64,000 nucleotides of DNA from Armatimonadota bacterium (GCA_013314775.1 JABUFB010000008.1:725036-789035), one strand, 5' to 3'; positions 37,859 to 51,875 are shown, counted from the stretch's first letter. A program made the numbers and translations. Notes: a model not told the origin generated them from the letters alone.

Positions 37859-39502
37859 TTACATTCGCCCCGGCGCCCCGGTGCCCTCCACGAACTGCCG
37901 CAAACCCTCGCAGATGGCCACGGCAGCCCTCTCGCGGGTCGTGTCCTGCTGCAAGAGGGCTTCCTCCGTGTCGCTGTTCAGAAACATCAGCTCCACGAGC
38001 ACTGCGGGCATTCGGGTCTCGCGGATGACCACGAACCGGGCCTGCTTCAAGCCGCGGTCAGGTCGCTTGAGCGCCGCAACCAGAGATTGCTGCATAATCA
38101 TACCCAGGCACTTGCTGGCCTGGCGATAGTAGAAGGTCTCGGTGCCAATACCCTCGTTCCGCCGGGGCATGGCATTGCAATGAATGCTGACAAACATGTC
38201 CGCCCCGAGGCGGTTGGCAAAACCAGCGCGGTCATAGAGATCCACAAAACGGTCATCATCCCGGGTCATGCGAGCAAGCACACCACGGCTGCGCAGAATC
38301 CGCGCTGCTCGTTGGGCCACGTCGAGAGTGACTTCCTTCTCCTTGAGCACCTTGCCCGAAGCGCCGTTGTCCTTGCCACCGTGCCCGGCGTCGAGAACTA
38401 CCCGCTTCCCTTCCAGCTGCTCGCGCCGGAAGACAATCTCCAAACCCGCGGGAGCGATGGGGTTCACGTCGAACTGGATCAGTTCGCGCAGGTTGAGGGT
38501 GAGGGTGGTCTGCGGCGGGTCTCCGTCCTGGTCCACGGTCACCGACTCGACGAACTCGCCGAACATGGGCAGATCGCGTTCGCTAGTGCCGGATCGCGTG
38601 TCGGCAAAACTCACGGTGATGCGCACCGGCCGCATGTGCAGGTCCCAGTTTGGGGTCACAGGCCAGTCCGTGAGAATGCGCAGCCGCTCGGAGTCGTCCG
38701 TGCCTTGCACAAGCGTCACGTCGGTAATCGCCGGGAAACGGCGCTTGACGACGGGCGCATTGTCCGACGGGCTGCCGATGATCATTATCCCGCCATACCC
38801 GCCTGCCGCCGGCTCCCAGCGGCCCGGTTGGTCGCTCCCGAGATCGGCAACCACTCTAGCGGTCGGCGGCTGAGGAACCGGTACTCCCAGGCGCACCCTG
38901 GCAAGCGGGCCGGTGTGGATATACTGGATCATCGGCACGTCAGGGGCAATCTCGGCGCCGCGCAGGTCAACATAGAAGCGGGTGGGGGCAGCCATGCGTT
39001 CGGTATTTCCCGTCACCGGCGCGGAGCAGTCCAAACGGATTCGCGCACCGCGCGCATCCGCACGCACTTCCACTTGAGTCAGGACCGCATTGGCCAGCAC
39101 GAATGCGTCGCCCTTCTTCCAGCGGAAGGAGAGGCCGAGAGCCGTGAGCACTGGTTCAAGAGGTCCGTAGCAGGTGCCCTGGCGCAGTTCGATCTTGCGC
39201 GGAAGCACGCGGGGATTGCCGGCAATCTGAGCGGTGGCGCTGCCGACTGCGAGCTTCACGCTCTGCCCGCGCGCCGTGGTCAGGGTAAGTGTCTGCTCAG
39301 CCTTGTTCCAGTCCGCGCGCGCGGAAGCCAGTCGGGCAGCATCAGCGAGTGGGCCGCAGACAACGCCGTCCAGAACCAGCGCTGCCGGGCCGCTATCCAG
39401 GGCCCGGCCGCATATAACAACGCCCACCGGCTCCTGCGCCACGCAGACGCCGGCGAAAATGATCGTTCCGAGGACCCACACGCCACCAAGACGGCTACCC
39501 AT
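37859..39502 (-). CDS. N-acetylmuramoyl-L-alanine amidase (Amidase_3) with N-terminal AMIN-like domains and a signal peptide.
   Basis: VVLDAGHGGKDNGA...FVSIHCNA is the Amidase_3 zinc-site pattern. The N-terminus is a secretion signal. Confidence 0.8.
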   Translation of the reverse strand: MGSRLGGVWVLGTIIFAGVCVAQEPVGVVICGRALDSGPAALVLDGVVCGPLADAARLASARADWNKAEQTLTLTTARGQSVKLAVGSATAQIAGNPRVLPRKIELRQGTCYGPLEPVLTALGLSFRWKKGDAFVLANAVLTQVEVRADARGARIRLDCSAPVTGNTERMAAPTRFYVDLRGAEIAPDVPMIQYIHTGPLARVRLGVPVPQPPTARVVADLGSDQPGRWEPAAGGYGGIMIIGSPSDNAPVVKRRFPAITDVTLVQGTDDSERLRILTDWPVTPNWDLHMRPVRITVSFADTRSGTSERDLPMFGEFVESVTVDQDGDPPQTTLTLNLRELIQFDVNPIAPAGLEIVFRREQLEGKRVVLDAGHGGKDNGASGKVLKEKEVTLDVAQRAARILRSRGVLARMTRDDDRFVDLYDRAGFANRLGADMFVSIHCNAMPRRNEGIGTETFYYRQASKCLGMIMQQSLVAALKRPDRGLKQARFVVIRETRMPAVLVELMFLNSDTEEALLQQDTTRERAAVAICEGLRQFVEGTGAPGRM

Positions 39503-40120: not shown

Positions 40121-41236
40121 TCACTTCACCCCGAACACATGCATCGTGGTCTGCCGGTACACCTGTCCCGGTCGCAGGACGACGGATGGGAACTCGGGTT
40201 TGTTGATGGAGTCCGGGTAGTGCTGGGTCTCCAGGCAGAACCCCCCGTGCTTCTGGTAGACCACGCCGCCCTTGCCCTTGAGGGTGCCGTCCAGGAAGTT
40301 CCCGGTGTACAGCTGGATGCCGGGTTCCGTCGTGTAGATCTCCATCACGCGCCCCGTGGTAATCTCCTCAACCCGCGCAGCGAAGGCCAACTTACCGCCG
40401 CCTGAATCCAGGCAGAAATTGTGGTCATATCCGCCCGGGTCGCCCGTCATCATGTCGATGTCCCGGCCAATGCGCTTGGGGCGGGTGAAGTCCAGCGGCG
40501 TGCCGGCCACGGGTGCGATCTCGCCCGTGGGAATGAGAGTGTCATCCACCGGCGTATAGTGCGAGGCCGCCAGGGTCAGGCGATGGCCGAGAATATCCCC
40601 CTTCTCCGGACCGGCCAGATTGAAGTAGCTGTGGTGCGTGAGGTTGACCGGGGTGGCCTTGTCGGTAGTGGCCCGGTAGTCGATGCGCAGGGCGTTGTCA
40701 TTGGTGAGGGTGTATGTGACGCGCACTCGCAGGTTTCCCGGGAACCCCTCTTCCCCATCTGGGCTCAGGTATTCGAAACGCACCGCCGGACCGGCGGCAG
40801 TCCGGAGCGGCGTGGCCTTCCATACCACCTTGTCAAAGCCCACAATGCCGCCATGGAGGGTGTTCGGGCCATTGTTGGCCGCAAGGAGGTACTCCTTGCC
40901 ATCCAGCGTGAACCTAGCTCCCCCAATGCGGTTCGCCACCCGGCCCACGGTTGCGCCGAAGTACGGGTGCCCGGCGAGGTACGCGTCCAGATTGTCGAAG
41001 CCCAGGACCACATCGCCCAATTTGCCTTCGCGGTCCGGTACGTGCAGTTCAGTAAGCAGCGCGCCGTAGGTCATGATCTTCGCGACCAGGCCGTTGACGT
41101 TAGTCAGGACGTACAGGTCCACGGGCTTGCCTTGCTCGGGAGTTTTCCCGAAGTCCAGGCGCTGGATGCTCGGCCTCGCGGCGAAGCTCGTGGAGATGAG
41201 AATGAGAAGGCAACTACACAACACGGTGGCGCGCAT
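40121..41236 (-). CDS. galM: Aldose 1-epimerase (galactose mutarotase family), secreted.
   Basis: The mutarotase core is GATVGRVANRI...F.LDGKEY.L..NNGPN.LHGG. The catalytic His/Glu context is present, along with a signal peptide. Confidence 0.85.
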   Translation of the reverse strand: MRATVLCSCLLILISTSFAARPSIQRLDFGKTPEQGKPVDLYVLTNVNGLVAKIMTYGALLTELHVPDREGKLGDVVLGFDNLDAYLAGHPYFGATVGRVANRIGGARFTLDGKEYLLAANNGPNTLHGGIVGFDKVVWKATPLRTAAGPAVRFEYLSPDGEEGFPGNLRVRVTYTLTNDNALRIDYRATTDKATPVNLTHHSYFNLAGPEKGDILGHRLTLAASHYTPVDDTLIPTGEIAPVAGTPLDFTRPKRIGRDIDMMTGDPGGYDHNFCLDSGGGKLAFAARVEEITTGRVMEIYTTEPGIQLYTGNFLDGTLKGKGGVVYQKHGGFCLETQHYPDSINKPEFPSVVLRPGQVYRQTTMHVFGVK

Positions 41237-41290
41237 GGTGAGGCCTCCTTCGTATCTGTGGCTGAGACTGGTCAGCGGTTCCGCTGCCCC

Positions 41291-42235
41291 TCAGTCGTCG
41301 AAACTATTGTCTTTGATGAACTGAATCAGCTCTGTCAGCGTGGTCGTCGCCAGGCAGACGCAGGTGTCCGCCGCGCCGTAGTACACCCGGAGTTCGTCGG
41401 TCTCCGGGTCGTGGGTCGCAGCCACCGGAAAGACCACGTTCGGCGTGTCGCCCACACATTCATAGAGGGCTGTGGGCGCAAGGATGTAGCGGCTGGTGCG
41501 ATAGAGCACCCTCCACGGCTCGTCAAGATCAAGAAGCGCCGCACCCGCGCTGTAGACGAAGCCATTGCAGGACGTGAGCACCCCGTGATAGATCATTACC
41601 CACCCTTCAGGGGTCTCGATGGGCACGGGTCCCGCGCCGATCTTCGTGCTCTGCCACCCGCCGCGCCGGCCCATGACGAACCGATGCTTGCCCCAGTAGA
41701 TCAGGTCTTTCGAGAAGCACAGGAAGATGTCGCCGAAGGGCGTGTGGCCCATGTCGCTGGGCCGGTGGAGCATACAGTACTCCCCATTGATCTTGCGCGG
41801 GAAAAGCACCGCATTGCGATTGCACGGCGGCAGGGCTATCTCCAGAAGCTCAAAGTCCTCGAAGTCGTCAGTCACTCCCATGCCGATGCACGGGCCGTGG
41901 TAGCCATGGCACCAAGTCACGTAGTAGCGGCCGTCAAGCTGGGTGATGCGCGGGTCATAGCCGTACTCGAAGCGCGAGAGATCACAATTGCCACAGCGCC
42001 ACCGGATCGGTTCCGGCGAAATGTGCCAGTCGATGCCGTCCTTGCTCTGGCCGGAGTGAAGCGTCATGTTCCGGGCCTGGTCGTCCACCCGGAAGACCCC
42101 CCGGTACTCGTCGCCCACCCGGATGACGCTGCTGTTCATGATGCTGTTGGAGGTGGGCGTCGCATTGCGGTGGATGATGGGGTTACCGGGATAGCGCTTC
42201 AGGAGTGGCTCGTTTGCTGGACTGAGTTCGTGCAT
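41291..42235 (-). CDS. Glycoside hydrolase family 130 (beta-mannoside phosphorylase / DUF377) protein.
   Basis: The five-bladed propeller signature is YPGNPII...SVIRVGDEYRGVFRVDD...GIDW...DPRIT...DGRYYVTW, typical of GH130. Confidence 0.8.
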   Translation of the reverse strand: MHELSPANEPLLKRYPGNPIIHRNATPTSNSIMNSSVIRVGDEYRGVFRVDDQARNMTLHSGQSKDGIDWHISPEPIRWRCGNCDLSRFEYGYDPRITQLDGRYYVTWCHGYHGPCIGMGVTDDFEDFELLEIALPPCNRNAVLFPRKINGEYCMLHRPSDMGHTPFGDIFLCFSKDLIYWGKHRFVMGRRGGWQSTKIGAGPVPIETPEGWVMIYHGVLTSCNGFVYSAGAALLDLDEPWRVLYRTSRYILAPTALYECVGDTPNVVFPVAATHDPETDELRVYYGAADTCVCLATTTLTELIQFIKDNSFDD

Positions 42236-42256
42236 GGTGCCTCACCGGTGTCCGAT

Positions 42257-43531
42257 TCAATGAACGGCGTTGAACTCGCGGATCGCGTCGAACATCGCCA
42301 GCAAATTCGGGACCGGCGTGTTCGGCTGGATATTGTGGATGGTGTTGAAAACGAACCCGCCTCCAGGAGCGAAGACTTCCAGGCGCTCCAGGACCTCGGC
42401 GCGCACTTCCTCGGGCGTGCCGAAGGGCAGCGTGCGCTGGGTGTCGACTCCGCCACCCCAGAAGGTGATGCGGTCGCCGAAATCCGCCTTCAGCCCCCGC
42501 GCCTCCATGCCATCCGCAGAGCATTGGACCGGGTTCAGGATGTCAAAGCCGGCGTCGATGAAGTCTTCCAGAAGCGGGCGAATGCCGCCGCAGGAGTGGA
42601 TGAAGGTCTTCCACCGGGTGTTCGCGTGGATCCAGTCATTCACCGCGCGATGGAAGGGCTTGAACAGGTCGCGGTAGCTCTCCACCGACGCAAAGGGCCC
42701 GCGCTGGGTCCCGAAGTCGGTCCCGGTAACCATTGCGACCTGCACGGCGTCACCAACCACCGCGGCGATGCGCTCGAGGTTGCGAAGGGCGATTTCGCAC
42801 TGTCTGGCGAAAACGATCTTCACATAGTCGCGGCGGGCGACCGTGGATATGTACCATTCCTCCACGTCGCGGATTCCCTTCGGATGCTTCAGGAAAGGCG
42901 CAGGGACAAGGGCAATGTCACCGAATCCAGTGCCGCCGAAATTGGCGACCACTGCCCGGTCTGACGCATCCAGGTCTGCAGCCAGAGTGCTGTAGCGCGC
43001 CAGTTCACCCTCAGTGACCGGCTGAAACTCCTCCAGATTGTCTTCAGGGTCCAGGCTCGCGTCGTCAATCGGCTCCTGTCGAATAATGCTGTCGAAGTAG
43101 AAGCCGCCCGCGGGCATCCGGCCACTGGGCGGCACAGTCTGGTCGCCGCCAGGGTACTGGAGCAGATCGCCGTTGGGTTCGGGCTGGGTGTTGAAGCCTC
43201 CCGGAACGAGGACCGGCGTCCCGTCCGGCATGTCCCAGGGCTTCCAGTCCTCGGCGGGGTACCCGAAGAGGGTGTCCTTCCCGCCGATGCCCACGGTGTC
43301 GATGCCCAGAGCTTCGCGCAGATCATCGGTGACTTCGCCCAGCATCTGGTACGGCTCGATCACCCGTACGCGATCACCGGGCTTGTCAAGACCCAGCGCC
43401 AGGCGCAGCTTCGACAGCGTAGACGCAGAGATGCCCGAGACCGGCGTGGCGCCGATGTCCAGGGGCACGCGGTCAGGCTCGCGATGGTCGATTGCCGCAA
43501 GGACTCTCTCGCGGGAGGTCATGTCGCCCAC
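42257..43531 (-). CDS. Uroporphyrinogen-decarboxylase (URO-D) family protein, non-heme-pathway paralog.
   Basis: The N-terminus (ERVLAAIDHREPDRVP) and the overall TIM-barrel URO-D layout fit the family. It is embedded in a sugar-catabolic operon. Confidence 0.65.
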   Translation of the reverse strand: MGDMTSRERVLAAIDHREPDRVPLDIGATPVSGISASTLSKLRLALGLDKPGDRVRVIEPYQMLGEVTDDLREALGIDTVGIGGKDTLFGYPAEDWKPWDMPDGTPVLVPGGFNTQPEPNGDLLQYPGGDQTVPPSGRMPAGGFYFDSIIRQEPIDDASLDPEDNLEEFQPVTEGELARYSTLAADLDASDRAVVANFGGTGFGDIALVPAPFLKHPKGIRDVEEWYISTVARRDYVKIVFARQCEIALRNLERIAAVVGDAVQVAMVTGTDFGTQRGPFASVESYRDLFKPFHRAVNDWIHANTRWKTFIHSCGGIRPLLEDFIDAGFDILNPVQCSADGMEARGLKADFGDRITFWGGGVDTQRTLPFGTPEEVRAEVLERLEVFAPGGGFVFNTIHNIQPNTPVPNLLAMFDAIREFNAVH

Positions 43532-43542
43532 CTCGGGTCAAG

Positions 43543-44469
43543 TCACGGGAAGAGCACGTCGGCTTCTTCCTTGACGATGCGCTTGATGTCCTGCTCGCAC
43601 TCGGGCGTCAGCGGGTAGCGCAGGAAATGCCGCCAGGTGCTGAAGATGCCCATCTCCACGAGAAGCCGCTTCTGCCCGGCCAGCCAGCACGCGATGCTCT
43701 CGCCCCCGAAAACCGCGTACATCATGGTGTTCATGCGCTCCTGCAAGGCATTCGCAGTGGTCAGATCGCCGGACTTCACCGCCTGCATGATGAGCCCCGC
43801 CAGGTAGCCGTTGAAGATTCCGCCGCCCAGCAGGAGTCCGTCGTAGCCGGCCGCCAGGTAATCCACGCACTTGAACTCGTTCCCGTTGAGCAGAAGCAGG
43901 TCTGGGCGCTTGCGGCGGGCTTCGAGAGCGATCTTCCGGCGGCCGTCATCCGAAGAGCTGTCCTTGACGAGGACCACATTGTCTTCGGCGTAGATGTTGG
44001 CCAGGACTTCATCCGGGACCACCACAGCTCCGAGCTTGCCACGGTCGTAGACGCCTACTGGCAAGGAGCTGTCACGGATCGCTTCCTGATACAGAGCGAG
44101 AATGTTGTCCGGCGTTGCGTTCAGGAGGAAGTAGGGCGGCGCGATAACCGCCACGTCCGCGCCGTCCTCGGCAGCCATCGCGATGTTGTCGAGGATCCGC
44201 GCAGAGGAGTTGTCGGTGACCTGCACCGCGATTACCAGCCGTCCCGCAGAAGCCTTCACGGTGGCTCTGACCAACGCACGGCGGGTCGAATCGGGCATCC
44301 AGGCGCCTTCACCGCAAGTCCCTGCGAGGAACAGGCCTTTCACCCCCAGGCGCAAATGGTGCTCCACCATGCGCTCCACCGAGGCTTCGTCCAGCGTCAT
44401 GTCGTCATTGAAAGGCGTGGGCGTCGCCGACCACACTCCGGCAAGTTTGTCACGGCTCAGCGCGGCCAT
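43543..44469 (-). CDS. DapA/NanA family lyase (dihydrodipicolinate synthase / N-acetylneuraminate lyase superfamily).
   Basis: GLFLAGTCGEG is present. The Schiff-base lysine lies in the VLVKDSS region, and a tyrosine-containing motif is present. Confidence 0.8.
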   Translation of the reverse strand: MAALSRDKLAGVWSATPTPFNDDMTLDEASVERMVEHHLRLGVKGLFLAGTCGEGAWMPDSTRRALVRATVKASAGRLVIAVQVTDNSSARILDNIAMAAEDGADVAVIAPPYFLLNATPDNILALYQEAIRDSSLPVGVYDRGKLGAVVVPDEVLANIYAEDNVVLVKDSSSDDGRRKIALEARRKRPDLLLLNGNEFKCVDYLAAGYDGLLLGGGIFNGYLAGLIMQAVKSGDLTTANALQERMNTMMYAVFGGESIACWLAGQKRLLVEMGIFSTWRHFLRYPLTPECEQDIKRIVKEEADVLFP

Positions 44470-44552: not shown

Positions 44553-46475
44553 TCAGAGCTGGTTCTGCTCCCAGGGATTGTCCGGCGGCGGCGCTGGTCG
44601 ATTCAGTCTTCGGAGCAGGTCCTCTATGTCCCGTTCATCCCCCGGCCGGTCCAGGTCCATCGCGAGTTCGGGGCGGTCCAGGATCATCAGTTCGCAGCGC
44701 GCGGCACCGGTCATCCGTTCCAGAAGGCGCGCAAGCGCGGATATGCTCGTGCCGGCCCGCGGGCTGACAAACCCGACCAGGAAGCGGAGCAGAAACCCCG
44801 GCCCGGCGAGTGAGGCGGCAAGCCACGGGCGCCTGCGCAGGACCAGAAACTGCTCCAGAGCGCCACGGAACTCGGCCGCCGCGTCCGGCCGCACCAGCGC
44901 GACGCCGGTGTGGGTCACCCAGCCTTCTTTCACAGGCAGCCAGGCCCAGTGGCGCTCCGGGGCCACCATCTCCGCGGAATCCCGCGACACCAGGGGGAGA
45001 CACAGCTCGGCGTCGCCCGAGCAATGCGCCAGGAACTCGCAGAGCGCCGCGGGAGTGACCGCAGGCAGGTCGCAGGTGACCACCAGGACCCGACGGTGTG
45101 TGCCTATGTCCTCGATGGCGCCCAGCAGGTTCGCGGTGAGCCCCGGCCGTTCTACGATGAGCCGGTCCGCCTTGCCCTCGCCGACCATCTCCCCCAGCAG
45201 GTCATCCGGACCGGCGATGGTGATGCTCTGGACATTGGGCACTTTTCGCAGGGCGTCTATGATGTGGGCGATGCTCGGCTTGCCCAGGATCGGTATCAGC
45301 GCCTTGTGCCCCCAACCGGTCCATTCGGCGAGATCGCGGCCCGAGCTTCCACCGGCGAGGATCAGAGCATCCACATGCTCGCGCGACTCCTGCGGGGTCT
45401 GGCACGCCGCAGAGACGGCAGCGCCCGGGACACGTCTGGTGGAAGGCTCCAGCCAGACCCGCTCGGCCCGACGCTGCGCAACGCCCGTGAGCTTGTCGTC
45501 CTCCAGTAGTCCACGGCGCCGCAGCATGACGTGCTCGAACCCTACGGCGATATGCGCGCCAAACAGGAGCGTCTGGGAGCCGATGAAGGACCACAGTGAG
45601 AAAACGACGACGCCGGTGAGGCCACCGTAGATCGTGCCGAACTGCTGTGACTGAGCGATAATGCTGGTGAATATGTGAGAGACAAGGAGCCACAAAACCG
45701 TCGCGCCCAGTGAGCCCGCCAACACTGCCTGATTAGGGACGCGCTGGACAGGCATGAGCTTGTACACAAGGGCGAACGCCACCCAGACCAGCAAGATCTG
45801 GACGGCCTCCACGAACCATGGCTGAGCGGCGTCCAGAATTGCTGGATTGATCTCCGGGAACTGCAGCAGCCACGTTCGCACCGAGGCCCACAGGGCGTTG
45901 AGAAGCATGAAGCTCCCCAGGAGCAGTCCTGCCACCACCATGCTGTTGAACGCCACCAGCTTCCGGGTGAGGTATCCGCGCGTGATCTTCCCCGGCCAGA
46001 CCTCTGTCAGGCTGCGCTCCAGGGTTTCGAAGAGGCGAATTGCGGCCCAGATCACGGTAACGAGACTTGCGGCGAAGGCAAGATACGCATTGCCCTGCCC
46101 CACGAGTCCGTATGCATCCCCCGAACCCATGGTGCCGATGGGATTTGCAAGCAGCCCCTCGACCATGGGGATGATCCGGTCAGCGGCATTTGGGCCAAGC
46201 TCCCGCGCCGCCTCGCGGATGCGTTCGTACACATCAGTCCCGGGGCCCAGGAGCATCTGCAGCCCGGCGGCGAGGAGCACGGCCAGCGGACCCAGGCAGA
46301 TCAGGGAGTAAAAGGCCACCGCAGCGGCCATGAAATGGGTGCCCGTGAAGTAGAAGCGCAGGTATGCGATCCTGGCAATGCGCAGCCAGAGCACCGCGAT
46401 GCGCAGCGGCGCCCGGGCAACCCGGACAGCCAGTTTCTCCGGTTCAGGGTCTGTCATGTCGCCTTCTCTCAGCAT
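44553..46475 (-). CDS. Fusion protein: N-terminal YihY/BrkB-family polytopic membrane domain plus C-terminal MobA-like nucleotidyltransferase domain.
   Basis: Residues 1 to about 330 have the six-TM YihY (ribonuclease-BN-like/BrkB) pattern. Residues from about 370 carry ALILAGGSSGRDL...GWGHKALIPILGKPSIAHIIDAL, a GT-A-like NTP_transf_3 fold. Confidence 0.6.
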   Translation of the reverse strand: MLREGDMTDPEPEKLAVRVARAPLRIAVLWLRIARIAYLRFYFTGTHFMAAAVAFYSLICLGPLAVLLAAGLQMLLGPGTDVYERIREAARELGPNAADRIIPMVEGLLANPIGTMGSGDAYGLVGQGNAYLAFAASLVTVIWAAIRLFETLERSLTEVWPGKITRGYLTRKLVAFNSMVVAGLLLGSFMLLNALWASVRTWLLQFPEINPAILDAAQPWFVEAVQILLVWVAFALVYKLMPVQRVPNQAVLAGSLGATVLWLLVSHIFTSIIAQSQQFGTIYGGLTGVVVFSLWSFIGSQTLLFGAHIAVGFEHVMLRRRGLLEDDKLTGVAQRRAERVWLEPSTRRVPGAAVSAACQTPQESREHVDALILAGGSSGRDLAEWTGWGHKALIPILGKPSIAHIIDALRKVPNVQSITIAGPDDLLGEMVGEGKADRLIVERPGLTANLLGAIEDIGTHRRVLVVTCDLPAVTPAALCEFLAHCSGDAELCLPLVSRDSAEMVAPERHWAWLPVKEGWVTHTGVALVRPDAAAEFRGALEQFLVLRRRPWLAASLAGPGFLLRFLVGFVSPRAGTSISALARLLERMTGAARCELMILDRPELAMDLDRPGDERDIEDLLRRLNRPAPPPDNPWEQNQL

Positions 46476-46527: not shown

Positions 46528-47061
46528 CTACCGCAGCTTCGCGAGCGAGCGGATCAGGTCCAGGTCCAGCTCGCCTTTCTGCCCCCAGCCCTTCTTGCCT
46601 GACGCGATCTGTGGCCGGAAACGCTCATACAGCTCATAGCCTGCCTCCGCGAGGGCTTCTGGTTCCAGGGAGTCCGCGAGCGCACGCATGGCGTCGCGCA
46701 CCCGGTCGAGGTCCGCGCCGAATTTGTTCTGAAGATATGTGCGGACCTTCTCTGGATCAATGGCCTCGTCCTTGACCACAGCTCGCAAGCCTGCGTCTGT
46801 GTTTTTGGCAGGGACCGGCCTGCCAAGGACCTCCACCCAGAACTCCTCGCCGAGACCCTTCTTCTTTGGTTTGCCCTCTTCATCCAGGTGCCTCGGGGGG
46901 CCGAAAACGCCCAGGCTCCGGCCCTTGGACTGGGCGTTGAGGCCCGCCAGGGCTTTCCCGAGGGTGAGCGCCGCATCCTCGTCGTGCCCAAGGCGTTCGC
47001 ACACCACTGCGGCCCAGAGCGCAAGAACGGGGGCCCTGTTGATCTGCACCGTGTCAGCCAT
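46528..47061 (-). CDS. Hypothetical protein (basic/acidic, alpha-helical), first gene of the minus-strand operon.
   Basis: The ORF has good coding periodicity and lies 52 nt upstream of the fusion gene. I recognised no motif. Confidence 0.4.
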   Translation of the reverse strand: MADTVQINRAPVLALWAAVVCERLGHDEDAALTLGKALAGLNAQSKGRSLGVFGPPRHLDEEGKPKKKGLGEEFWVEVLGRPVPAKNTDAGLRAVVKDEAIDPEKVRTYLQNKFGADLDRVRDAMRALADSLEPEALAEAGYELYERFRPQIASGKKGWGQKGELDLDLIRSLAKLR

Positions 47062-47234
47062 TCACCACACCTCCATGACAACAGTTCGCCCGGGAAGAGA
47101 CCATCGCCTGCATGCCCCGCTGAAGGGATTACTGCTCGGGAGCGGAACCTGTCTCCGGCAGACAGCTGTACCGCTGCCGCCGCGCCGGATACCGAACTGG
47201 TGCGGCCCGGGCAATATCGGACTTGGGAGGACTG

Positions 47235-48182
47235 ATGCGAATGTCGCGAGTGTTTGTATTGATAACGTGCGCGCTGTGCCTGGTTGTGCCTTCTTCGGCC
47301 CAGCAGAACGCTGCCGCGCGCCGGGCGCTTCTATTGACACTCAAGCCAGGGCAACTCGCGGCTGTCGAGCGGCTTTCGGCATCACTCCATGACCCCGATC
47401 CGGTGGTAGCGCGCACGGCGGCCCGTCTTCTCGGACAGTTTGGAGATGCCGCCTTGCCATCCTTGCGCAAAGCGCTGCAAAGCAACGATCTGCTGGTTCG
47501 GCGCAATGCGGTGGCGTCCCTGGGAGCTATCGGGAAGCCCGCCGTAGCCGACCTCATGCAGGCGATGAAAGATCCGCATGTGCTGATCCGGCAGGCAGCG
47601 GTGTTTGCGCTGAGCCGGGTGCGGCCCATGTCTGATGAGGTCTCGCAGGCCATCGCCCTCGCCACATCGGACGAACAGCAACTCGTGCGCGACGCGGCGC
47701 TGGATGTCCTGCGAACGCGGTTCGTCACAGTGCGCACGATTCCCCTGCCGGAGGAGGACTGGAAATTCAGGACCGACCCGGACAACCAGGGCGAGCAGGC
47801 CGGCTGGTTCGCAGCTGACCTGGACGATGCCGGCTGGCTGGACATTGGCATCGGCAAGTCGTGGGAGGAGTTCGGGCACACCTACGATGGCGTGGCGTGG
47901 TACCGCAGGACCGTGGAACTGCCCGCCATCGATCCGCCACCGGCCCGGGCGGTGCTGGCTTTCGGTGGGGTGGATGAAGACTGCTGGGTGTGGATCAACG
48001 GGAAGTCCGCCGGAGCCCATGCCATCGGCCCGATGGGTTGGGACAAGCCCTTCCGGCTGGATGTGAGCCATGCGATCAAGTGGGGCCAGGCCAACCAGAT
48101 CGCGGTGAAGGTGAATGACTCGGCCTTCGCAGGCGGCATCTGGCGGCCGGTGGAATTGCTGGCGCTGGAGGAGGCGGATTAG
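47235..48182 (+). CDS. Secreted HEAT-repeat protein with a C-terminal galactose-binding-domain-like (GH2 N-terminal sugar-binding-like) module.
   Basis: The signal peptide is MRMSRVFVLITCALCLVVPSSAQ. HEAT-like repeats follow (DPDPVVARTAARLLGQFGD; NDLLVRRNAVASLGAIG; DPHVLIRQAAVFALS). WFAADLDDAGWLDIGIGKSWEE...VLAFGGVDEDCWVWINGK...WRPVEL is jelly-roll-like. Confidence 0.5.
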   Translation: MRMSRVFVLITCALCLVVPSSAQQNAAARRALLLTLKPGQLAAVERLSASLHDPDPVVARTAARLLGQFGDAALPSLRKALQSNDLLVRRNAVASLGAIGKPAVADLMQAMKDPHVLIRQAAVFALSRVRPMSDEVSQAIALATSDEQQLVRDAALDVLRTRFVTVRTIPLPEEDWKFRTDPDNQGEQAGWFAADLDDAGWLDIGIGKSWEEFGHTYDGVAWYRRTVELPAIDPPPARAVLAFGGVDEDCWVWINGKSAGAHAIGPMGWDKPFRLDVSHAIKWGQANQIAVKVNDSAFAGGIWRPVELLALEEAD

Positions 48183-50008: not shown

Positions 50009-51190
50009 TCAGAACCTCGGGTTCGGCCCGACCACTTCCGGGCGTTCCTCGGCCAATTCCTTCGCCATCGCCTTCAGGCGCGCATCCGCGTGCTCGAAGA
50101 GCATCCTGTATGATTCGCAGAAGTAGCTCGGGCCGTTGATAGTGCCGAGGCCGGTGAGCCGGTGTCGCTGACAGCCACCGTGGCACTGGCCGAACCAGGG
50201 GCAGTCCTCGCACCCGCACCCTGTCCGGGCCTTGTCGAACCGAAACTGCATGAACTTCTCGGAGAGCGCGATCTCTCGCAGCGGTGTCTCCATTACATTA
50301 CCCAGACGGTATTCCGGCTCCACGAAAAAGTCGCAGGGATAGACGTCGCCGTTGTGCTCGATGAGCAGATAGTCCGCGCACGTCCGGCGCATGTCGCACG
50401 ATGGGCACTCGTGGCCGAGATAGACCATAAGCAGGTCGTCCATCATGCGCACGTAAGTTCGCGGTGCTGATTCCGCTTGCCAGCGGTCGAAAATGGTGCA
50501 CAGGAACTCGCCAAACTGTCGTGGGGTGCAGTTGTACGGACAAAGCTTCCCCGTCTCCGGATCGCGCTCGATGCACGGGATGAACTGCAGATAGCGGAAG
50601 TTGTGCTGCATATAGAAGTCGTAGATCTCGTCGGCCTTGTCGCCCGAGTATGCGGTGACCATGCACAGGATGTTGAACTCTGCGCCATTTCGGTCGAGTA
50701 TTTCGGTGCTGCGCATGACCCGGTCCCATGTAGATTCGCCGGTGGGCGTGCGGCGGTAATGGTCGTGGATGTGCTTCGGGCCGTCGAGACTCACACCGAT
50801 GAGGAAGCTATACCTTCGGAAGAACCGGGCCCACTCATCATTGATGAGCATGCCGTTGGTCTGCAGGCCGTTGGCGATGTTTTGGCCAGGCCGCGCTTTC
50901 TGAAGCTGGACAGCCACCACGCTGCGAAAGAAATCCACACCGAGAAGTGTGGGTTCACCACCTTGCCAACCGAAAGAGGGATTGTCGCCAGACATCTCCA
51001 TGTACTCACCTATGAGCCGGTGCATGACCTCGCGCGACAGCCTGTGGCCGCCGCCGGGATAAATCGCGTGTTTCGGCAAGTAGAAACAGTACTCGCAGCG
51101 CAGATTGCAGTCAGGTCCGGCGGGCTTGATGAGCAAGCTGAGACTGCGCAGGTAGGCTTCGGGGTCGGTGATGCGGATGTCTGTGTCCAT
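50009..51190 (-). CDS. Radical SAM / SPASM-domain maturase (anaerobic sulfatase-maturating enzyme family).
   Basis: It has CNLRCEYC (CxxxCxxC), then GGEPTL, and a C-terminal SPASM cysteine array (CPSCDMRRTC...CGCEDCPWFGQCHGGC). The start is set at MDTDIRI (51190). Confidence 0.8.
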   Translation of the reverse strand: MDTDIRITDPEAYLRSLSLLIKPAGPDCNLRCEYCFYLPKHAIYPGGGHRLSREVMHRLIGEYMEMSGDNPSFGWQGGEPTLLGVDFFRSVVAVQLQKARPGQNIANGLQTNGMLINDEWARFFRRYSFLIGVSLDGPKHIHDHYRRTPTGESTWDRVMRSTEILDRNGAEFNILCMVTAYSGDKADEIYDFYMQHNFRYLQFIPCIERDPETGKLCPYNCTPRQFGEFLCTIFDRWQAESAPRTYVRMMDDLLMVYLGHECPSCDMRRTCADYLLIEHNGDVYPCDFFVEPEYRLGNVMETPLREIALSEKFMQFRFDKARTGCGCEDCPWFGQCHGGCQRHRLTGLGTINGPSYFCESYRMLFEHADARLKAMAKELAEERPEVVGPNPRF

Positions 51191-51875
51191 GAGCGCGGGT
51201 ATGCCTCGTGGGGTCCCGAAATGGGGGTGACCGCTTCCGGGCCGGTGGTTATAATATGGGCCATAATACCCACACCGGCCCCCGCGAAGCAACCGGGGGA
51301 GGGTGGTCATGTGGCAGGGGCCCCATCCGCCCATCATGGGTCACGCCGGGAGAAGCGAAACACACGGAGGGCGCTGCACTGTCGGCGTCTATGCCCTGTC
51401 GCCGCCGTGAAACCCCGGTGGGGCCGTCCGTATGCAGCCAGGGGCGGGCGCCCCTGGAATCAGGTGTACGCGACCGCAGAGACGCGAAGCCCCAGCGGGC
51501 AGACAGGAACCGCTGCTCATCTGCCGCCCCCGTTGGGGGCTGACGTCGGACTGCAACCGAGGACGGAGCGCGCGTCATCAATACGGTTGTGTTCGCGGGA
51601 GCGCTTTGCCCCGCATGAGTTGGACACACGTGTGCTCATCGTTCACCTGGAGTTCGAGGGACTCGGTGACTGACTCGGCTGACACTTGAGCCGCCCACCC
51701 CGCCCCGGAGATAACATGGCGCGAATTGGCAAGAACAGGTATGTCTATCCACAGGCACTGATCCCATCCCGGGGTCAGTGCCTGCTTCCGTATGCCTGAT
51801 CGGGGCCGTGCACGGGCCCACTTCGCGACCACACCGGCGGCTTTCCCCGCCTCAAACTCACAGGAGCAATACGTG

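Follow-up and report, generated by a model that had tools for sequence, protein, structure and literature searches.

Background

The YihY/BrkB proteins are among the most widespread bacterial inner-membrane families without an assigned function. A 2026 preprint describes a CysZ-like fold for YihY of E. coli and still calls it a protein of unknown function. Experimental data on the YihY family are limited to E. coli YhjD, which binds core-lipid A, co-purifies with LptB and is a suppressor of Kdo depletion (PMC3219608).

The family of TTHA0179-type nucleotidyltransferases (NTases) comprises more than 1,400 sequence clusters, with a crystal structure since 2007 and a function that is likewise unassigned. 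Among better described systems, IPCT/DIPPS (PDB 4MND) combines a CTP:inositol-1-phosphate cytidylyltransferase with a membrane CDP-alcohol transferase in one fusion protein. Salvage routes that combine a transporter, in some cases a kinase, and a GT-A cytidylyltransferase are LicB/LicA/LicC for choline, sialic-acid uptake with NeuA, and AmgK/MurU.

Here we describe a gene from an Armatimonadota bacterium in which a YihY/BrkB domain and a TTHA0179-type NTase share one reading frame. The window, i.e. the whole stretch of DNA analysed, covers 64,000 nucleotides (GCA_013314775.1, JABUFB010000008.1:725036-789035), and positions are counted from its first letter. An earlier note, made from the sequence alone, had described the gene as a YihY/BrkB membrane domain fused to a MobA-like nucleotidyltransferase within an operon, and had suggested that YihY proteins may act with a nucleotide-activated small molecule.

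Gene model and domain architecture

The fusion gene and its parts are located as follows.

44553..46475 (-), fusion ORF, 640 aa including the stop codon (ORF list)
45534..46334 (-), YihY/BrkB membrane domain, residues 48-314 (PF03631, Virul_fac_BrkB; hydropathy)
45375..45518 (-), cytoplasmic linker, residues 320-367, about 48 residues (alignment A1)
44601..45374 (-), complete TTHA0179-type GT-A NTase module, residues 368-625

The ORF listing of the window gives no internal stops in 44553..46475(-), and the two peptides quoted in the earlier note, ALILAGGSSGRDL and KALIPILGKP, were both found at residues 370-400 of the fusion protein. The 640-aa uninterrupted frame was thus correctly described. 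The more probable start is nevertheless Met7 (ATG at 46457), giving a protein of 634 aa, because GAGAAGG is found 5 nt upstream of this ATG and the NCBI model of the fusion (P0001) also has 634 aa and begins at Met7. This identical protein is on record from an Armatimonadetes MAG, where its gene lies on a 1.13-Mb contig, and its database name is only 'YihY/virulence factor BrkB family protein'.

Pfam matches to both halves, together with the recurring orthologues described below, establish that the in-frame fusion of YihY/BrkB and a GT-A-type NTP-transferase is real and conserved. The linker between them is arginine-rich at its start and then variable in sequence and length, with indels and no conservation in alignment A1.

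Membrane domain and topology

The N-terminal half matched PF03631 at 117.9 bits (cut-off 33.7), covering model positions 7-256 of 259. Two NCBIfam cut-offs were missed, namely that of TIGR00765 (yihY_not_rbn) with 56.6 against 73.15 and that of PRK01637 (BrkB equivalog) with 52.7 against 307. By these scores the membrane domain is assigned to a distant subfamily and is no equivalog of E. coli YihY or Bordetella BrkB. A broader YihY alignment contained 24 invariant columns.

Hydropathy analysis gave six hydrophobic helices at approximately residues 46-76, 128-152, 172-199, 218-240, 250-275 and 286-310. Summed over six orthologues, the N-terminus, loops 2-3 and 4-5 and the segment following TM6 carry 107 lysines and arginines, against 19 in the other three loops. 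This charge bias unambiguously predicts an N-in/C-in membrane domain with both termini cytoplasmic, and therefore an NTase placed in the cytoplasm, where NTPs are. The side which the NTase faces, a point raised in the earlier note, thus follows from a positive-inside analysis over six orthologues. The topology reported for E. coli YihY in the 2026 preprint agrees with this layout. A full-length AlphaFold model built from a 6-sequence alignment reached a pLDDT of 50.6 and a pTM of 0.33; it held no interface information and was set aside.

Identity of the nucleotidyltransferase module

In the whole protein, NTP_transf_3 (PF12804) matched residues 370-494 at 53.7 bits against a cut-off of 27, so that the C-terminal half does have a nucleotidyltransferase profile match, and the isolated C-terminal part scored 56.1 bits. 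The Pfam match spans just 125 residues of this half. Residues 368-614 align end to end with TTHA0179 of Thermus thermophilus (PDB 2DPW, 232 aa) with an E-value of 6e-15. A model of the NTase module from a 62-sequence alignment had a pLDDT of 93.2 and a pTM of 0.90, and 2DPW was the top Foldseek match of the predicted module (E 1.4e-20, TM 0.88), with CMP-Kdo synthetases, IspD, GlmU and MurU trailing by nine orders of magnitude.

Sequence and predicted structure together identify the C-terminal half as a complete GT-A nucleotidyltransferase that belongs to a separate, uncurated family, here called TTHA0179-type. The name 'MobA-like' holds as far as the GT-A core and the PF12804 match are concerned, but the MobA identity does not, since 2DPW is matched end to end and the equivalog models are missed; judged by these scores, the name is a Pfam label.

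Several named families were tried and rejected. MobA/MocA scored far below the NCBIfam equivalog cut-offs, CofC/FbiD gave 26 against a cut-off of 105, and GlmU 22.9 against 666. Scored on a stand-alone family member, CobY gave 35.8 against 250 and IspD 28.3 against 181. With CobY so far below its cut-off, the IMG name 'GTP:adenosylcobinamide-phosphate guanylyltransferase' carried by stand-alone members is unsupported. PF00483, the family of sugar-1-phosphate NTases, had no match in the fusion protein at E <= 0.01, and of the fused orthologues only two, the window protein and P0002, have the arginine after the GG pair of the GxGxR(L/M)xPLT loop; membership of the sugar-1-phosphate NTases was rejected on both grounds.

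Conserved residues and likely activity

Conservation was compared between six fused proteins and 61 stand-alone members, and the following segments of the module stand out.

45303..45362 (-), putative nucleotide-binding loop ILAGG...HK, residues 372-391 (A374, G375, G376, K391)
45063..45071 (-), D469-x-P471 motif, putative metal and NTP site
44904..44927 (-), clade-specific loop EGWVTHTG, residues 517-524 (family consensus EGxFTGGN)
44637..44657 (-), C-terminal D607-L-D609-R-P-G-D613 motif (family form DxDxPxD)

The ILAGG...HK loop is invariant in 6/6 fused orthologues and predominant in the stand-alone members, and the analogy with the corresponding loops of GlmU and IspD suggests a role in nucleotide binding. 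D469 and P471, both invariant in the fused clade, are present in 60/61 and 58/61 of the stand-alone members, respectively. In the C-terminal motif D607 and D609 are found in 61/61 and D613 in 56/61 stand-alone members, and all three are kept in 5-6 of the six fused proteins. The same retention holds for the wider set formed by A374, G375, K391, N449, D469, P471, T521, R547, G558, D607, D609 and D613. In total 42 columns of the NTase half are invariant among the six fused proteins. On the family HMM the fused modules reach 165-260 bits, values comparable to those of the stand-alone proteins. The fused NTase thus appears to be catalytically intact.

The sole exception among the family-invariant residues is the TGGN loop, which reads THT[GC] in the fused clade. 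Where the family form is EGxFTGGN, the fused clade has EGWxTHT[G/C], and position 522 is His in 6/6 fused proteins vs Gly in 53/61 stand-alone members. The loop of P0008, the separate NTase of the split form described below, reads REGWITHTCN, and His522 is therefore invariant across the fused and split clade. Residues 517-524 probably contact the acceptor, on the analogy of the sugar-binding strand in GlmU and RmlA-type enzymes. Since this presumed acceptor loop is consistently altered, the fused clade may use an acceptor other than that of the mainstream family.

Distribution of fused, split and unfused forms

A word-index search found five further full-length two-domain proteins (P0002-P0006) from different samples, with 88-36% identity to the window protein. 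Three more fusions (P0009, P0010 and P0011) were found when a profile of the C-terminal half was run with HMMER against 1.84 billion cluster representatives. Alignment A1 was used for the genome scan and a motif-selected subset, A5, for the metagenome scan. With one genome per GTDB species, the full-length fusion was confined to MAGs bearing the label Armatimonadia, 'Candidatus Zipacnadia' or Armatimonadota, and four reference MAGs carry it. The fusion thus recurs in at least 9 protein clusters, all from Armatimonadia/"Zipacnadia" MAGs. It is real but rare and clade-restricted, with 5-6 cases among the best 150 representatives of the NTase family.

The earlier note had named an in-frame stop or a frameshift between the domains as one finding that would speak against the fusion. 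The ORF is open, and the fusion is not an assembly or frameshift artefact, because the same architecture is seen in independent samples (P0002-P0006 and P0009-P0011) and in the four reference MAGs.

Co-occurrence of the two genes in split form, which the earlier note had proposed to look for, was found in three independent assemblies (L104-L106). Here P0008, a stand-alone NTase of 263 aa, directly follows a yihY gene of 322 aa. The junction AAGGAGGgggacTGATGgac holds a Shine-Dalgarno sequence followed by the yihY stop, which overlaps the NTase start by one base (TGATG), so that the two adjacent genes are translationally coupled; the linker region is missing in this form. The two split-form proteins share 48% and 38% identity with the matching halves of the window protein. 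As fused and translationally coupled split forms occur in one clade, it is very likely, judging from these gene arrangements, that YihY and the NTase act together in this clade of Armatimonadota.

A third, unfused state was found in five MAGs of the same class (L012-L016), where the orthologous YihY proteins are complete (315-354 aa, 39-51% identity) and no NTase lies within 10 kb. A profile search gave thirteen further unfused YihY clusters at 43-57% identity. Among 58 matches to close YihY relatives, 57 consist of a single domain and the remaining one has an Rrf2 HTH; no other enzyme fusions were present in this set. The partnership is real, yet not universal even within the same YihY subfamily.

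Gene neighbourhood

The earlier note placed the fusion second in a six-gene minus-strand operon continuing into DapA-like, URO-D-like, GH130 and mutarotase genes. The order in the window is unknown 177-aa ORF, fusion, DapA-like, URO-D-like, GH130 and aldose 1-epimerase. The genes other than the fusion are listed below; the last four were identified with Pfam and NCBIfam.

46528..47061 (-), upstream 177-aa ORF, 52 nt from the fusion, no Pfam or NCBIfam match
43543-44469 (-), DHDPS/NanA-family aldolase
42257-43531 (-), URO-D/MtaA-like protein
41291-42235 (-), GH130
40121-41236 (-), aldose 1-epimerase

Order, strand and close spacing were correctly described, with gaps of 52, 83, 11, 21 and 54 nt along the six genes. 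No terminator-like sites were found in the intergenic gaps, where the promoter and terminator scan was uninformative. The linkage itself is not conserved. Homologues of nine window neighbours were searched for in a set of related fusion or orthologue loci with blastp (E <= 1e-5) and none was found. The neighbours of the fusion vary between the loci compared (L001-L011, L104, L109 and L110) and include pilin-like genes with peptidase M19, DUF2334 with an FGE-sulfatase, MTTB with an epimerase, peptidase S9 with an EamA transporter, a nitroreductase with an inositol-monophosphatase-family gene, and unknowns. Since the neighbours differ in every locus compared, the fusion gene behaves as a self-contained unit. 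The 177-aa ORF is no conserved partner, and the downstream genes lie next to the fusion without an evolutionary link to it.

The wider NTase family and a parallel fusion

A TTHA0179-type profile search returned 2,801 representatives at E <= 1e-3, of which 1,416 had E <= 1e-10. The best 150 consist almost entirely of stand-alone proteins, 245-275 aa long. N-terminal extensions of some representatives were considered as membrane anchors and rejected, being low-complexity and not hydrophobic; they are probably miscalled starts.

In 80 metagenomic loci of the mainstream FTGGN type, neither YihY nor a DAGK-type kinase was found within 6 kb of the NTase. A general Rosetta-stone link between YihY and this NTase family was rejected on the absence of YihY from all 80. 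Around the stand-alone NTase we found a conserved block with the order ispE (63/80 loci), GntR/FCD regulator (60), NTase, purR (21), glmU (58), prs (37), L25 (25), pth (30) and mfd (20), gene identities having been confirmed with Pfam and NCBIfam. This block, from ispE to mfd, looks like lineage (housekeeping) synteny and carries little functional information.

The NTase family has also been recruited, independently, to a second transporter class. P0048 (671 aa) and P0163 (693 aa; 71% identical to P0048 and from another sample) are MFS_2/GPH-type transporters with a TTHA0179-type NTase at the C-terminus. Both loci have, immediately upstream of the fusion, a YegS/Rv2252/BmrU-family lipid kinase that passes the TIGR00147 cut-off and, immediately downstream, a CdsA-family (CTP_transf_1) gene. 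Furthermore, two assemblies carry a stand-alone relative, P0157, whose gene comes after der-plsY-gpsA-lipid kinase in the same orientation. With 37-39% identity between them (26-34% to others), this protein and the MFS-fused NTases are each other's nearest cross-branch relatives, and on this basis they are grouped as a sister sub-branch with a conserved kinase partner.

The YhjD data and this sister-branch context agree in hinting at a lipid substrate. No lipid kinase or CdsA was found by tblastn beside the YihY fusions or in the window, and the lipid link is therefore treated as a lead only.

Proposed mechanism and alternatives

We tentatively favour translocation-coupled nucleotidyl activation as a possible role, that is retrieval or import followed by activation, with the two halves as functional partners whether fused or coupled. 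At the inner membrane face, the YihY domain would move or present a small molecule, which may be amphipathic or related to lipids, and the tethered NTase would then couple this molecule to a nucleotide from an NTP. The nucleotide would most probably be CTP, giving a CMP- or CDP-derivative, and nucleotidylation would both trap the molecule and activate it for reuse. The architecture, topology, conservation, gene coupling, retained residues and parallel transporter fusion are observed, whereas we infer that the enzyme is active, which nucleotide and substrate it uses, and which way transport runs. The case for CTP comes only from the predominance of cytidylyltransferases among the structural neighbours of the predicted module and from the CdsA-family gene next to the sister-branch fusions. 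Import followed by activation is favoured because both fusion partners are carrier-like rather than enzymes and because salvage routes are well precedented.

The reverse direction is the main alternative, which we consider rather unlikely. The NTase would make an NMP- or NDP-activated compound which YihY exports, flips or attaches to a membrane or envelope acceptor, much as in the bifunctional IPCT/DIPPS, where a cytidylyltransferase feeds the fused membrane transferase. YihY, however, has no recognised transferase motif and its fold resembles the permease CysZ, both independent fusion partners are transporter-like and not membrane enzymes, and a neighbour of the inositol monophosphatase type (Inositol_P) occurs at one locus only. 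To our knowledge there is also little precedent for bacterial exporters of nucleotide-activated compounds.

A broader form of the import-and-activation proposal would make the TTHA0179-type enzymes a membrane-associated cytidylyltransferase family, working on varied carriers (YihY, MFS_2) and activating a lipid-like or head-group precursor during translocation. We regard this as unlikely at present. If true, it would give a first mechanistic handle on YihY/BrkB proteins as carriers, and it would fit the link between YhjD and lipid A precursors.

The NTase-like module could instead be non-catalytic, binding a nucleotide or metabolite and thereby gating a YihY transporter. Members of the family do not consistently keep the canonical Arg of the GxGxR loop, and the replacement of TGGN by THT[GC] with an invariant His is what such a regulatory role might leave behind. 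We nevertheless find it distinctly unlikely, as the other family-invariant residues, DxP and DxDxPxD included, are retained in nearly all fused proteins, the HMM scores are those of stand-alone enzymes, and the split form retains a full-length separate NTase.

Very improbable is a pathway specific to the window, in which YihY imports a glycoside, GH130 releases mannose-1-phosphate, the fused NTase makes GDP-mannose, and the aldolase, URO-D-like protein and mutarotase complete mannoside use. The genes are indeed co-directional with gaps of 11-83 nt free of terminator-like sites, and GH130 matches mannoside phosphorylase models in NCBIfam, though below their cut-offs. Comparative support is absent, however, the neighbours not being conserved beside the fusion, and the NTase lacks sugar-1-phosphate NTase signatures.

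Finally, a fortuitous or artefactual fusion of functionally unlinked halves, to which the rarity of the fusion and the unfused state of close YihY orthologues might point, has almost no probability left given conservation across at least 9 clusters down to 36% identity with both halves constrained, and an independent, translationally coupled split form in three assemblies.

A fusion together with a translationally coupled pair is classical evidence of joint action, and here it joins two orphan families. The YihY-NTase link is confined to one uncultured clade and is thus an experimental lead, not a function for the YihY family as a whole. The suggestion that YihY proteins act with a nucleotide-activated molecule is accordingly unsupported when extended to all YihY, most of which have no NTase partner. 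For the fused subfamily, the fusion offers a practical entry: the NTase module is soluble and assayable, and its substrate would reveal what the fused YihY carries. The parallel MFS fusion, with its lipid-kinase and CdsA-family neighbours, reduces the set of substrates to screen first.

Comparison with known systems

No papers on the fusion, on TTHA0179 or on the PF03631+PF12804 architecture were found in the searchable literature, which agrees with the earlier note in that no characterised example turned up. The architecture is already present in public databases under generic names, with no description found.

The window protein shares PF03631 and the six-helix N-in/C-in layout with E. coli YihY and its paralogue YhjD, but these are single-domain proteins without a known NTase partner, and the window domain belongs to a distant subfamily. 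The links of YhjD to lipid A precursor and LPS traffic parallel the lipid-gene context of the sister NTase branch.

On the NTase side, TTHA0179 (2DPW), a structural-genomics 'hypothetical transferase', is a stand-alone, soluble protein of 232 aa with an FTGGN loop, whereas the fusion has THT[GC]. MobA, the molybdenum cofactor guanylyltransferase after which PF12804 is named, has the GT-A core and the Pfam family in common with the fused NTase.

The MFS_2 fusions (P0048 and P0163) are a parallel case, with the same NTase family likewise C-terminal on a polytopic transporter-like protein, and they support a general logic of a membrane carrier joined to a TTHA0179-type NTase. They differ in the partner, which is GPH/MFS_2 with about 12 TM, and in an NTase that is 30-31% identical and has an FTGSN loop. 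They are also flanked by genes for a YegS-type lipid kinase and a CdsA-family protein, whereas the YihY fusions have neither.

In IPCT/DIPPS the order is reversed, the NTase being N-terminal, and the membrane part belongs to the CDP-alcohol phosphatidyltransferases, for which a catalytic motif is defined. The fusion protein had no match to PF01066 in Pfam, PF03631 being its only membrane-domain match, and the resemblance is one of design only. LicB/LicA/LicC, sialic-acid uptake with NeuA, and AmgK/MurU are separate proteins of other families with known substrates, and the likeness to them is by analogy. Enzyme-transporter fusions are a known design. What appears to be new here is the pairing of YihY with an NTase, together with its split form and the MFS fusion that parallels it.

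Window genes flanking the fusion

The genes on either side of the YihY::nucleotidyltransferase (NTase) fusion were as follows.

46528-47061, (-), putative gene of 177 aa, the ORF directly upstream of the fusion
40121-44469, (-), tight four-gene set: DHDPS/NanA-family aldolase, URO-D/MtaA-like, GH130, galactose mutarotase-type aldose 1-epimerase

The 177-aa ORF matched nothing in Pfam or NCBIfam, and the related loci tested contained no homologue of it. For the GH130 protein, the top matches were models of beta-1,2- and beta-1,4-mannoside phosphorylases, under their cut-offs. The four-gene set probably forms a glycoside-catabolism cluster of its own.

Three other window proteins were recorded.

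47223-48182, (+), 319 aa, HEAT repeats and a glycosyl hydrolase family 2 N-terminal sugar-binding domain
37859-39502, (-), 547 aa, copper amine oxidase N-terminal-like, AMIN and N-acetylmuramoyl-L-alanine amidase domains
50009-51337, (-), 442 aa, CNLRCEYC motif and a Cys-rich C-terminal part

The gene of the 319-aa protein, an unusual domain combination, is divergent from the fusion-side cluster. The 547-aa protein is a cell-wall amidase whose N-terminal module is uncommon. Judged by eye, the 442-aa ORF resembles a radical-SAM/SPASM maturase, e.g. an anaerobic sulfatase-maturating enzyme.

Neighbourhoods of related nucleotidyltransferases

In the 80 metagenome loci L024-L103, the mainstream stand-alone TTHA0179-type NTase lies in a conserved block made up of ispE, a GntR/FCD regulator, the NTase, (purR), glmU, prs, L25, pth and mfd. 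The GntR-NTase pair appears to have been inserted into the classic ispE-purR-glmU-prs region of Firmicutes. Two further arrangements involve lipid genes.

L021 3812-8792 and L022 210-5190, same-strand run: der, plsY, gpsA, YegS-type lipid kinase, NTase
L007 2223-6291 and L108 4574-8681, four-gene cluster around an MFS_2::NTase fusion, conserved in two samples

The final gene of the first run encodes P0157, a stand-alone TTHA0179-type NTase, and by this gene order one branch of the family sits among genes for glycerophospholipid synthesis. The second consists of a 178-180-aa unknown protein, a YegS/BmrU-family lipid kinase, the MFS_2 transporter::TTHA0179-type NTase fusion and a CdsA-family (CTP_transf_1) gene, the last interrupted by the contig end; the cluster looks like an undescribed lipid-related module.

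Other fusions of either half

A representative search gave P0097 (379 aa), in which a TTHA0179-type NTase carries a C-terminal RidA/YjgF (Endoribonuclease L-PSP) domain. The pairing may stem from the proximity of purR and yabJ in the Firmicutes block. The YihY profile search yielded P0225 (475 aa), whose YihY domain is joined to a transcription-factor domain of the Rrf2 type (PF02082). Taken with the NCBIfam model PRK04214, titled 'ribonuclease BN/unknown domain fusion protein', it shows that YihY tolerates other cytoplasmic appendages.

Possible parallel with the inositol phosphate pathway

P0010 is another YihY::NTase fusion, at locus L109, where a URO-D-family gene is also found approximately 5 kb downstream. 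Its adjoining gene is the following.

L109 8792-9571, same strand as P0010, inositol-monophosphatase-family gene starting 3 nt past the fusion's stop codon

Such a neighbour of YihY::NTase was seen at this single locus, and there it recalls the IPCT/DIPPS-IMPase pathway, in which CTP:inositol-1-phosphate cytidylyltransferase is fused to a membrane CDP-alcohol transferase.
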